NCBI GenBank assembly: GCA_048571215.1
Contig: CP182352.1
Location: forward strand, 2,464,001-2,528,000
Length of the DNA: 64,000 bases
DNA from: Halarcobacter sp.
GTDB lineage: Bacteria; Campylobacterota; Campylobacteria; Campylobacterales; Arcobacteraceae
Reading direction: 5' to 3'
The position numbers and the translations under genes are program-made. Below the pieces are notes generated by a model. It was not told the DNA's origin, made no database searches, and saw nothing but the letters and a program-made list of their open reading frames with translations. The stretch's first letter is position 1. The number at the start of each line of letters is the position of its first letter. Below, one piece after another: positions 56,161 through 59,442 of the stretch.

Positions 56161-57039
56161 TTAATTTTTTATTTTTTTATTATATATCTTTATTTTCGTC
56201 TTGTATTTTGACGAATTGAGATAATTAGTTGGGAGACTAGGTAATTTTTTTTCTAAAATATATTTAGAAAGAATTGAACTAAGAATTATTTTTCTAATTT
56301 TATGTTCAATATAAATACCACACTTACAATTTATCATTGAAATGTTATAAAAACGATTCCATGTTTTACCATTATCTTGAGATATTTCTAGTTTGTTTTC
56401 ATTTCCTTTTAAATGTATGTCCTTATATCTCATATTTAATTTTTCAATAATTAACTTACTTGGGGGTAAAATTTTTATTTTTAGAGAAATTTCTCTTAAT
56501 TTTTCTCTAATTAAAATTACATTTCCTATACATTCTATATCCCAATTATCAATATATACATCCCATTTATTATTAATAATTTTTAACGATTTTTTTCCTA
56601 ATGAATTATAAAAAACTCCTGAAATCAATATTCCATTCTCATCTTTTTGTATAGATAAAATTGGCTTCTCATTTATTTGAATTAAGTTTTTACAATTTTT
56701 ATAATGTGTACCAGCTATGCTTATATCTAAATCATTATCTGAAAAATCAAAATATTCATGAGCAAATTTATCTGATAAACATTTTGGTTTTTCATTCGCT
56801 TTAATAACTTTTTCTAAAGATAAAACTCCTCTATTTCTTTTTTGATTACATTGCATACATAATAATGTAATTTCATCTTCACTATGTTCTAAAGCATCTT
56901 TAAATTCAGGATAGAAATGTTCATAATCATACCATGCAAATCCACATATTACACAGCCATAACCACATCTTTTTCTTACATTTCTTTTTATATCTGCTGG
57001 TATATTTCTAGATAAACCATGTTTGTTAATACTAGACAT
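56161..57039 (-). CDS. HNH-type endonuclease domain protein (likely start MSSINK at 57039)
   Basis: R.IPADIKR.VR.RCGYGCVICG...YEH...LLCMQCN Zn-binding beta-beta-alpha pattern; AGGAAAG RBS. Confidence 0.75.
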   Translation of the reverse strand: MSSINKHGLSRNIPADIKRNVRKRCGYGCVICGFAWYDYEHFYPEFKDALEHSEDEITLLCMQCNQKRNRGVLSLEKVIKANEKPKCLSDKFAHEYFDFSDNDLDISIAGTHYKNCKNLIQINEKPILSIQKDENGILISGVFYNSLGKKSLKIINNKWDVYIDNWDIECIGNVILIREKLREISLKIKILPPSKLIIEKLNMRYKDIHLKGNENKLEISQDNGKTWNRFYNISMINCKCGIYIEHKIRKIILSSILSKYILEKKLPSLPTNYLNSSKYKTKIKIYNKKIKN

Positions 57040-57119
57040 AACTTTCCTAAATAAAATTAATAAAATCATTATATTTAAAATATAATTTATTCTCTCTTGA
57101 AGAGTAAGCAGAGAAAAAT

Positions 57120-57360
57120 TTTCTTATGTAAATTGAATATCACACCAACTAAAACAAAATGGTACTAAAAAATGCAAAGGTCAATTTTCCCTATTCCCGC
57201 ATTTGAGAAGCCGAGTGTTTATTTATTGTTTCGGAGAAGTTTTGTAACTGTTTGAACAGAACAAATATGCTGGGAGCATATTTTTATGTGAGTTTTACAA
57301 AACAGAAACAATAAATAATAAGCGAGGGTAGTTTCACCTTCGAAACCCGCGGGATAATTC
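57120..57360 (+). repeat. Structured repeat copy A, left part (interrupted by IS110)
   Basis: Homologous to 59012-59260; identical 33-mer at 57194-57226 and 59086-59118. Confidence 0.9.
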
Positions 57361-57371
57361 GTATAATAAAA

Positions 57372-57600
57372 TATTGGAAATATGATAGTATATTTTCATA
57401 GAGTTCAATAGAAGATGATATATTGTGTGGGTGGTTGAAGCAATTAAAAATAATTTTAATTAGCTTGTAAAGAAGTTCAATAGTTATACTTCAAATTTGA
57501 GTGGCAACAAGAACAGTTTTATAACTAGTTCGTATTTACGAGTCTAAAGTTTGTATGACGAAATATCAGGTAGGAATTTTATTCCTACCCTAACGAACTC
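57372..57600 (+). ncRNA. Predicted IS110 bridge RNA
   Basis: TATAAT at 57362-57367; 5' hairpin 57372-57410; target-binding loop 57415-57487 (GGGTGGTT / GTAAAGAA); donor-matching GTGGCAAC at 57501-57508 and ACGAA at 57558-57562. Confidence 0.75.
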
Positions 57601-57626
57601 TTTATATTAATACAAAGGTTCTAGAT

Positions 57627-58610
57627 ATGTATTCTATCGGATTAGATATAAGTAAGTCAACAATTAATATTTATATCCCTATCAATGATTTAGATATTCA
57701 AATATCAAATAATTTGAAATCACTTAAAGGTTTTTATTCTAAGTTAAAAAAACTTTATAAAAAAGATATAGATAAACTTGTATTTGTTTTTGAACCTACA
57801 GCTAATTATTCCTTTTTAATTAAAAAGTTTTGTTCTGAAAAAAGTATACACTGTTTTATTGTTAATCCAAAGAAAAGTGCTAACTTTGCTAAAGCAATTG
57901 GTCAAAGAAATAAAACTGACCTTTTAGATGCTAGAATGTTATCTCAGATGATAGTTACTGCAAGAAAAAATCAGATTAAAATACCCATTATTAATCCTTA
58001 TGCCGAGGAATTAAAAGAGCTTATTACATATTATAAATTTATATCAAAAATTAAAACTCAAAATAAAAATCATTTGGAAGCTTTAGTTTCAAAAGATGCT
58101 TCATCTATTATAATTAAATCATTAAGAAAAGATATAAAATCATTTGAAAAAAAAGAAAAAGATATTCTTATTGAGATAAAAAAAGTTATTGCAAAAGACA
58201 AAAATTTACATAATGCATTTTTAAATATCCAAACTATAAAAGGCATAGGAGAATTATCTTCAATTATATTATTACACCATTTTATACAATATCCTGATAC
58301 AAATCAAAAGCAAATTGTTTCATTAGCTGGATTAGATCCAGTTAGTAGAGATTCTGGTTCATCAATAAAAGGAAAAACAAAAATATCAAAATCTGGTTCA
58401 AAATTATGTAGGGGTACATTATTTATGGCAGTAATGACAGCGATACAATACAATGAAGAATTAAAAATATTTTATAATAGATTAAAAGAGAATGGCAAAC
58501 ATACTACTGTAGCACAAATTGCTGTAATGCGAAAAATGATTGTAATTGCTCACTCATTATATAAAAATAATAATATATATGACCCTAATAAATTTAAAAG
58601 TATATCATAA
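57627..58610 (+). CDS. IS110-family DEDD recombinase (transposase)
   Basis: IGLDISK, FEPTA, KTDLLDA (DEDD tetrad), IKGIG, GLDP...DSGSS (catalytic Ser region), AVMRKM; uninterrupted ORF. Confidence 0.96.
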   Translation: MYSIGLDISKSTINIYIPINDLDIQISNNLKSLKGFYSKLKKLYKKDIDKLVFVFEPTANYSFLIKKFCSEKSIHCFIVNPKKSANFAKAIGQRNKTDLLDARMLSQMIVTARKNQIKIPIINPYAEELKELITYYKFISKIKTQNKNHLEALVSKDASSIIIKSLRKDIKSFEKKEKDILIEIKKVIAKDKNLHNAFLNIQTIKGIGELSSIILLHHFIQYPDTNQKQIVSLAGLDPVSRDSGSSIKGKTKISKSGSKLCRGTLFMAVMTAIQYNEELKIFYNRLKENGKHTTVAQIAVMRKMIVIAHSLYKNNNIYDPNKFKSIS

Positions 58611-58661
58611 ATATTAGATTTAAATATTTTATATTTTATCATTTTTTAAGGTGGCAACTTC

Positions 58662-58755
58662 TTTGCTACTTTCTTTTTCACAAAAGAAAGTCGATAGAAA
58701 TTAAGACGTATAGTAAAAGTTTATTTATACTCAAATATATTAATAATAGTTTTAA
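58662..58755 (+). repeat. Structured repeat copy A, right part
   Basis: tttgctactttctttt..cacaaaagaaagtcga..aagacgta..taaaagtttatttatactcaaatat..aatagttttaa matches 59259-59372. Confidence 0.9.
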
Positions 58756-58795
58756 GTGTATGCAATTATCTTGTAGAACAAAGTTCTCCGCTTTC

Positions 58796-58990
58796 TTTAC
58801 TTTTAGTGGTAAAAGTAAAACAAAAGCCACCAGACGGTTGTTGAAGCTAAAGTTCCCTACAGCTTTCTAATTATTTCCTGACCTGCGGGACGCCTTCCTA
58901 AAAGGTACATTCAGTACCTTTTATCCAGTTGAACGGTCCTCGGTCTTCTCCGAAAATAATTAAAAACCTTCCGGCTTCAACAAAGTCTGG
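58796..58990 (-). repeat. Structured repeat copy B (inverted, more diverged family member)
   Basis: Minus strand GAAGCCG..TTTCGGAGAAG..AGGGAAC.TT.GCTTC..TTTTG.TTTACTTTT..AAAAGTAAA matches copies A/C; nested stems 58830-58835/58985-58990, 58838-58847/58974-58983, 58899-58923. Confidence 0.75.
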
Positions 58991-59011
58991 ACAAATACTC
59001 TAGCCACGAAC

Positions 59012-59372
59012 TTTCTCTTAGTAATTGAGTATCACACCAGCTTAAATAAAATGGTAACAAAAAATGCAAAGGTCCTTATCCCACCTTCCCGCATTTGAGA
59101 AGCCGAGTGTTTATTTATCTCTTTTGAAAACAAGTGACTAAACTGTCTGAAGCGTAAAGAAATGTGCTGGGAGCACATTTTAGCAAGTTTTTAGGCACTC
59201 AAAAGGGATGAATAATAAACGAGGGAACCTTCGGCTTCGAAACCTGTGGGATGATTTTTTTGCTACTTTCTTTTTGCCTGCGAGCAGGATTGACATCACA
59301 AAAGAAAGTCGAGAAAGCCAAGACGTACATTAAAAGTTTATTTATACTCAAATATTTTGAAAATAGTTTTAA
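59012..59372 (+). repeat. Structured repeat copy C (uninterrupted)
   Basis: Full-length homologue of the rejoined copy A, with compensatory stem changes. Confidence 0.9.
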
Positions 59373-59410
59373 TTGGTGAGATACCCAATATATATAAAAT
59401 TTTAAATATA

Positions 59411-59442
59411 AAAAAAGGAGATAGCAAACTGCTATCTCCTTT
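59411..59442 (-). terminator. Intrinsic terminator of secF
   Basis: aaaggagatagc/gctatctccttt stem followed by a U-tract on the minus strand. Confidence 0.85.

Follow-up and report, generated by a model that had tools for sequence, protein, structure and literature searches.

The 64,000-nucleotide stretch of Halarcobacter DNA analyzed here (the window, G000:C1:2464001-2528000, which lies within the single 3.61-Mb contig of genome G000 at 28.5% G+C) carries an array of three large structured repeats, and we suggest, with moderate confidence, that the family to which they belong is likely a non-autonomous, REPIN-like mobile element that works as folded single-stranded DNA. A profile search recovered 80 full or partial units in this genome, of two homologous types, 48 of type X (27 of them at least 240 nt long) and 32 of type Y (22 of them at least 225 nt long), grouped at 16 loci. 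In the mechanism that we propose, (i) a covarying rod would carry a conserved head recognized by a so far unfound enzyme, (ii) the 3' tail, a predicted pyrimidine triple helix, would act as a terminal stabilizing or stop signal, (iii) the units would be copied in trans, and (iv) the working form would be DNA rather than RNA, as GCGNAGC and other C-GNA-G triloops suggest. The family is apparently undescribed: the literature searched, with most subscription journals outside it, held no description of the head motif, the triplex tail or the attI-linked repeat.

An initial annotation, made from the sequence of the window alone, had reported three copies in the orientation +/-/+. The orientation is correct because the middle copy, B, is a distant homologue of copy C (131 of 198 aligned core bases match) and because the X and Y profile models cross-match on opposite strands; the count has to be widened, as this array is one of the 16 loci genome-wide.

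Fold, head and predicted triple helix

The same annotation had pointed to compensatory base changes and to selection on a single-stranded fold, and the genomic copies bear this out. Among 22 genomic copies of X, 97% of the cells at 29 named pairs can pair and 10 pairs have changed on both sides; among 22 copies of Y, the values are 96% at 51 named pairs and 20 pairs, and controls in which the helices of X and Y were slid pair in 40-62% of cells. Because the copies fall into few alleles, these counts are not independent events and the evidence is weaker than the cell counts suggest. Folding z-scores are -2.96 for copy C and -4.44 for copy B together with the end of copy A. Rfam gave no match at gathering score within the window and five weak matches, all outside the units, so that no named family can be assigned to them. 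Thus neither an Rfam match nor a lack of further copies and of covariation, the outcomes that the initial annotation had named as telling against it, was found, and we discard local duplication or chance palindromes altogether in view of the 80 units at 16 loci, the relatives in many phyla and covariation far above the controls.

Close relatives were sought with a model that uses sequence alone and was trained on 18 X and Y copies. Separate scans for the head motif found its compact form, AACTGTYTGAGCGNAGCGAGTT, at at least 124 genome loci and at least 123 metagenome loci, in hosts that include Ralstonia, Flavobacterium, Lachnospiraceae, Desulfobacterota, Nitrospirota, Sulfurimonas and Saccharibacteria among others. 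Across these many phyla the invariant head motif contains GCGNAGC, and the distant elements have the same anatomy, i.e. a rod of unrelated sequence that closes on the head. At the five pairs flanking the head, 225 of 255 cells are Watson-Crick in 51 sequence clusters (cross-element control: mean 71, maximum 97), as are 129 of 150 in 30 held-out clusters (control 41, maximum 62). The sense strand folds better than the antisense strand in 46 of the 51 clusters with RNA parameters and in 42 with DNA parameters. The proposed homology of the distant elements to X and Y is one of head and anatomy, not of full-length alignment. The plasmid collection held no match to the element; the head pattern matched four times in viral contigs, where one of three matches inspected proved genuine and the fourth match is a sister sequence of it.

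The 3' module consists, in order, of a T-tract, a linker of 5-7 nt, a pyrimidine arm, a loop and a purine arm, and can be read in two ways: under an alternative pairing the first tract would directly copy the second, and as a parallel third strand it would be the mirror image. With a free register, 40 modules tied, 21 scored as direct and 10 as mirror. Because a free gap lets a mirror tract score as direct too, the test was repeated with the register anchored on the linker. The module was then recognized in 117 of 254 elements, 44 of them distinct, and the asymmetric distinct modules comprise 16 mirror and no direct cases, while the held-out set contributed one mirror and one symmetric module. 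Among the 44 distinct modules, 27 have an internal C in the third strand and in the stem alike and 13 lack it in both; four have it only in the stem, and no module has it only in the third strand. Similarly, three columns of the X alignment (n=22) read C/C/G in 15 copies and T/T/A in five. With mirror register and stem covariation both seen, we suggest that the module is a class IV intrastrand pyrimidine triplex in the scheme of PMC4666352, a prediction from sequence comparison.

Mobility, DNA or RNA, and kinship with known systems

Several properties of the units are those of mobile repeats. Neighboring units meet in 24 Y-X, 16 X-Y, two X-X and no Y-Y junctions; the units alternate, and therefore their folds face head-to-head and tail-to-tail. 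Twenty-two of 25 congeners match the model, with 1-69 matches each (range 0-69 over all 25). Under stricter filters, with 20 candidates scored per genome, four of 120 other genomes of the order match, two of which belong to other genera of the family and have 17 and 20 matches. The comparison of filled and empty sites that had been proposed initially found both states: the window's site is filled in two congeners (G017 and G002), holds a remnant in a third (G012) and is empty in eight of ten genomes compared; it is also filled in another genus (L246). Units are moreover targets of insertion sequences (IS). The IS110-family element of the window exists in four identical copies in G000, all at one position of X units, and a second IS110 in three copies that all entered Y units at the same point, the conserved GCGAG-T of the head (G000:C1:383537-384508, 424877-425848 and 969584-970555; 74% identical to the window's transposase gene). 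REPs, too, are IS110 targets.

Genes between units are accessory and mostly co-oriented. The 33 gene pairs that flank units (12 ++, 12 --, seven convergent, two divergent) reveal no strand bias of the units relative to neighboring genes. Twelve loci oppose the leading strand, three follow it and one is mixed, a count that uses skew extremes giving very unequal replichores; these extremes of cumulative GC skew, at 1.17 and 3.43 Mb, perhaps reflect a rearrangement.

The initial annotation had left three options, a non-coding RNA (ncRNA), a MITE/REP-like element or a recombination substrate. The MITE/REP-like option fits best because of the copy number of 0-69, the alternating inverted arrays, the IS110 targeting and the absence of strand bias; recombination finds indirect support in that units are targets of two IS110s and one integrative element; ncRNA retains a minor share of our belief, as discussed below. 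The integrative element is 35 kb long (G000:C1:2205543-2240493; L014, L015), splits a Y/X chimeric unit and encodes an integrase and a TraD-like coupling protein at opposite ends. Its right end carries what resembles a 3' tRNA-gene half, so the repeat may have served it as a secondary attachment site.

According to PMC3337134, REPINs are probably processed as folded single strands of DNA, and the REP/BIME/REPIN elements mobilized by Y1 transposases of the RAYT type are, like the units described here, non-coding and intergenic, arranged as inverted doublets and tandem alternating arrays, devoid of an enzyme of their own and long persistent at orthologous sites. They differ in that our units are 250-350 nt with an elaborate fold instead of short palindromes and that no RAYT gene flanked by units was found. 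The intergenic multicopy repeats TM-ECO and BoxC share a predicted intrastrand triplex with our family, as far as the accessible part of PMC4666352 describes them.

A second kinship emerged when viral contigs were scanned for the tail. Eight loci were found, and two of the seven checked in Rfam (L197, L198) are TwoAYGGAY elements (RF01731) that end in the same module, which suggests one chassis with different heads. RF01731 itself has no match in G000 at E <= 10, the window included, and none on 12 head-motif loci checked; the pair of AYGGAY-loop hairpins is absent from the X and Y alignments, which have a single apical hairpin with other loops. The main text of preprint 10.64898/2026.09.22.753630 describes an extended TwoAYGGAY form that has a long basal stem and carries a pseudoknot on its 3' side, occurs in divergent doublets and varies widely in copy number; it leaves the mobility of this form undecided and does not use the word 'triplex'. 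On that description, the extended form is like our family in being multicopy and intergenic, in its long basal stem, 3' module and divergent doublets, in large strain-to-strain differences in copy number and in a 3' extension that is missing in some lineages. It is unlike it in the head, which here is AACTGTYTGAGCGNAGCGAGTT or an extended form without AYGGAY hairpins, and in the 3' feature, where our register test points to a triple helix rather than to the pseudoknot of the preprint's main text. Four further sequences (L192, L193, L195 and L196) carry a triplex-type tail without an exact head and without a TwoAYGGAY match; the head of L195 is a variant in which the stem is longer and the triloop is GCA. 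Judging from the copy counts, extended TwoAYGGAY elements are probably the R200 repeats of P. fluorescens SBW25. These are 320 bp long and present in 47 copies (PMC2718517). In total, our family behaves like REPIN/BIME and appears to share the chassis of extended TwoAYGGAY, yet by the tests that define them it is neither.

We favor DNA over RNA as the working form. All four letters occur as the middle base of GCGNAGC, and according to the available text of PMC13037366 this motif forms an extra-stable DNA mini-hairpin whose RNA counterparts are much less stable; the accessible part of PMC2864571 applies the same loop argument to another motif. Outside the head motif, C-GNA-G triloops number six against 0.87 expected in the first set, with one on the antisense strand, and three against 0.55 expected in the held-out set; UNCG is found on the sense strand in neither set. 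GNRA tetraloops number one against 2.67 expected in the first set and four against 1.25 in the held-out set.

Alternatively, the units could be structured ncRNA genes, in which a U-A-U-rich triple helix shields the 3' end, the head binds a protein and spread is secondary, a model already put forward for TwoAYGGAY RNAs. A T-run with one C, as in the tail, is reminiscent of RNA triple helices already known. The strand-specific fold shows many G-U-type changes, the two TwoAYGGAY elements end in the same tail, a putative sigma70-like hexamer pair lies at the 5' end of X (59025-59052 on the + strand of copy C, by eye), and the GNRA count of the held-out set also points this way; in addition, preprint 10.64898/2026.09.22.753630 cites Csr/Rsm binding for TwoAYGGAY loops in its main text. 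However, GNA is the triloop of the invariant head, and the loop counts show an excess of C-GNA-G and no UNCG. Likewise, upstream -10-like hexamers show no excess (44 sense, 52 antisense), the -10-like hexamer of X differs between copies in its first base, and the head-to-head/tail-to-tail alternation and a copy number of 0-69 would be atypical of small RNA genes. One metatranscriptome run (0.09 share, contigs, unstranded) gave low, patchy depth from which no conclusion was drawn. On balance, we regard the ncRNA explanation as rather doubtful, though serious enough to be kept in view.

Several points weigh against a mobile element of folded single-stranded DNA. All loop counts are small, with the GNRA count of the held-out set pointing the other way, and the DNA signature rests on the relatives because the copies in G000 have replaced the GCGNAGC tip by longer hairpins. 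Pyrimidine triplexes form in both DNA and RNA according to the available text of PMC4666352; the triplex pattern is present in only 14 of 51 clusters (strict; 18 loose) and in three of 30 held-out clusters, and one of 11 symmetric modules (L061) breaks the register. By eye, the ends of X show an imperfect 8-nt inverted match, and no matching IS, target-site duplication or precise junction of an empty site could be established. Long vertical inheritance, instead of current mobility, could explain why two genera carry a unit at the same site.

Finally, no mobilizing enzyme was found. No recurrent enzyme appeared among the open reading frames (ORFs) next to units, either in scans of 121 and 54 ORFs or by clustering; the neighbors of distant loci are housekeeping genes, and among 160 loci scanned there were only two tyrosine-recombinase matches and one IS110 match. 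Tyrosine recombinases were also sought directly, and no candidate emerged. The single Y1 (RAYT-like) gene of G000 lies 37 kb away, beside other repeats, and no unit lies close to any of 19 Y1 loci examined across the genus. For a GIY-YIG nuclease, as in SsnA/GIY-YIG-associated repeats, the only match was in a 610-amino-acid (aa) frame, with no small nuclease beside the repeats. A reverse transcriptase, as in retrons and group II introns, was sought through RVT_1, which had no match in G000, the control matching in three of 14 genomes. The search for Y2/IS91 carries no weight, its control having matched nowhere.

Near the Y1 gene lies a separate repeat system of GGGGACAG/GGGTCAG motifs (G000:C1:807486-811129, 2553840-2560259 and 3395448-3396801), mixed with a repeat that we call W and with the 13-mer that ends both IS110s. 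W is also the conserved 5' flank of X; it was considered as an integron end and rejected, as it is a separate repeat found also away from X and absent from intI 3' ends.

Integrase-less cassette platforms

At other loci of G000, terminal X copies are followed on their 3' side by an AT-rich stretch with homology to the promoter/attI region of the only intact integron in the genome. Seventeen of 24 matches to an attI-like profile lie 137-274 bp 3' of an X, a count that is favored because X flanks and the intI region served as training sequences for the profile, which also matches beside intI at all 11 integrase loci tested, from 10 genomes. The region 3' of X is conserved up to a GTT and variable beyond it, with GTT at 16 of the 17 X-linked sites and ATT at one. 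At 10 of these 17 sites the first ORF closes with an exact complement of the core 7-mer, against a chance background of 0.4%; neither of the two X-free attI-like sites with an ORF shows this. By these comparisons, 17 X copies abut integrase-less attI/promoter regions and 10 of these regions carry a verifiable integron cassette, with recombination by IntI as a prediction. Short X copies continue without a gap as the reverse complement of the initial codons of an intI gene (G000:C1:1717862-1717922, 1711205-1711554, 1803465-1803799 and three more). The complete integron (G000:C1:895245-899400; L023:11240-15400) has an intact IntI above the TIGR02249 cut-off, an attI and about three cassettes with ordinary attC, and no X or Y unit lies near it.

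The best matches of the 17 X-linked regions fall on five different intI heads, four of them from other genomes, and therefore repeated capture or exchange is suggested. In the model that we propose, one X form in this lineage would have become linked to the beginning of an integron integrase gene, comprising its 5' stub and the promoter/attI region, and this joined form would then have spread or recombined with several integron heads. The outcome would be 17 integrase-less cassette platforms served by a single intact IntI; the array in the window is a version that has no attI. As in an integron platform or CALIN, the region 3' of these X copies is homologous to intI-promoter/attI and heads cassettes with complementary core sites; unlike in those, there are many attI heads per genome, a structured repeat takes the place of intI and the repeat itself is not an attC. 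More tentatively, our family and TwoAYGGAY elements may be members of a superfamily of bacterial mobile single-stranded elements with one chassis (rod plus 3' triple helix) and swapped heads (of GCGNAGC type, TwoAYGGAY type and others), copied by an enzyme still to be found; in this lineage, such an element would have captured an integron head and scattered the platforms around the chromosome. We offer this as a possibility in which we have limited confidence. The sites of relatives count against a causal role of the repeat: 40 attI-like loci were taken as a non-random sample and 38 confirmed, and because 25 of the 38 lack X and Y (13 have any match, 10 a clear one), the repeat is not needed for an orphan attI.

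The attI link also bears on whether the repeat needs an enzyme dedicated to it. It may instead be an old, mostly vertical passenger that is at present spread by IntI, acting between attI and secondary sites, and by homologous recombination of the host. X and Y copies are indeed mosaics of common modules, the X-linked attI regions come from several integron heads, the same site is occupied in two genera, and IntI has a match in six of seven high-copy but only four of 18 low-copy congeners, which are kin and not independent. This correlation is not specific, because Y1 shows a similar split among the same non-independent kin (six of seven and six of 18). Moreover, the family also reaches multiple copies in phyla that showed no attI link; G012, with its 24 matches, lacks a match to IntI; eight of the 16 loci in G000, the window among them, lack an attI; and the invariant head is left unexplained. 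We therefore consider the passenger explanation unlikely.

Alternatively, the units could be giant attC-like single-stranded sites that the integron integrase recombines directly. An attC has RYYYAAC ... GTTRRRY ends around a folded core. The units are strand-specific folded hairpins beside attI sites and cassettes, and Y carries a paired GTT/AAC; however, its GTT is on the 5' arm and its AAC on the 3' arm (by eye), the reverse of an attC, and X has no such pair at the corresponding place. Given also that the cassettes bear ordinary attC-like ends and that no X or Y match of note occurs at the 11 intI loci, we judge this explanation highly improbable.

Several cassettes hold defence-like domains (TIR-Mrr, Mrr, SIR2-like, Stk2-like kinase and HNH). 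The first gene behind one X-linked attI-like site is an ORF of the beta-lactamase family (PF00144; L005:12454-13893).

The array in the window and its implications

All 13 motif strings of the initial annotation that were checked are present, and the apical hairpins of copies A and C do begin at 57263 and 59160. Copy A is of X type on the + strand. Its 5' part (57133-57359) comprises the leader, the basal helix, the rod arms 57220-57232/57305-57317 and a head at 57246-57296 that contains the apical hairpin 57263-57283. An IS110-family element of 1.3 kb (57360-58658, +) interrupts the copy at the start of the third strand of its predicted triplex module and encodes a transposase of 327 aa (57627-58610, +; Pfam DEDD_Tnp_IS110 and Transposase_20). 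The 3' part (58659-58755, +) consists of the predicted triplex module (58659-58691) and the conserved tail. Copy B, of Y type, follows on the - strand as the inverted distant homologue (58761-59014), with a basal helix at 58985-58992/58830-58837 and a 3' module of T-tract and hairpin at 58795-58827.

Copy C (59025-59373, +) is an intact X with the conserved tail, a basal helix at 59087-59092/59246-59251, a rod at 59112-59124/59202-59214 and a head at 59141-59191. Its predicted intrastrand pyrimidine triple helix (59255-59309, +) is made up of T-tract, 5-nt linker, pyrimidine arm, loop and purine arm, and a 21-nt palindromic insert occupies the loop of the triplex hairpin (59276-59296, +). Palindromic inserts of 20-35 nt recur within X and Y units (L005:4895-5246, L005:10388-10726 and L008:14238-14520), where inspected in loops or bulges of the predicted fold.

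Copies A and C are homologous as had been claimed, with about 260 of 320 aligned bases in common (~81% identity), and the length of ~340-360 bp given for both does not hold for A, which rejoined is ~325 nt; B is ~254 nt. The units were said to be more GC-rich than their surroundings, and they are, at 34-40% G+C against 22% and 33% in the flanking genes and 28.5% genome-wide; they are not free of ORFs, as two ORFs of 50 codons overlap them on the minus strand.

No attI-like region is present 3' of copy C, and the array as a whole is without attI. Immediately beyond copy C lies a terminator-like hairpin after a secF-like gene (59412-59442, -). Ahead of copy A, 57092-57132 (no strand assigned) is by eye the probable remnant of an internally deleted Y-type unit, and a similar flank precedes the X copy at the orthologous site in G017. 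The neighboring ORF is variable: in the window it is a frame of 302 aa with an HNH-like look by eye and no Pfam or PADLOC match (56161-57069, -), and in G017 and G002 a different gene of ~610 aa takes its place. The HNH-like gene was considered as an integron cassette and rejected, no convincing attC being seen by eye.

The head and its rod define a structured element that spans Ralstonia, Flavobacterium, Lachnospiraceae and Patescibacteria and has no Rfam entry. Natural triple helices supported by three-way covariation, like the one predicted here, are rare in bacteria, and short oligonucleotides would allow a test of it. The common tail provides a handle on TwoAYGGAY elements, whose function and spread are not settled. 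Finally, fusion of X with attI may be one way for a genome that has a single integrase to gain many separate cassette platforms.

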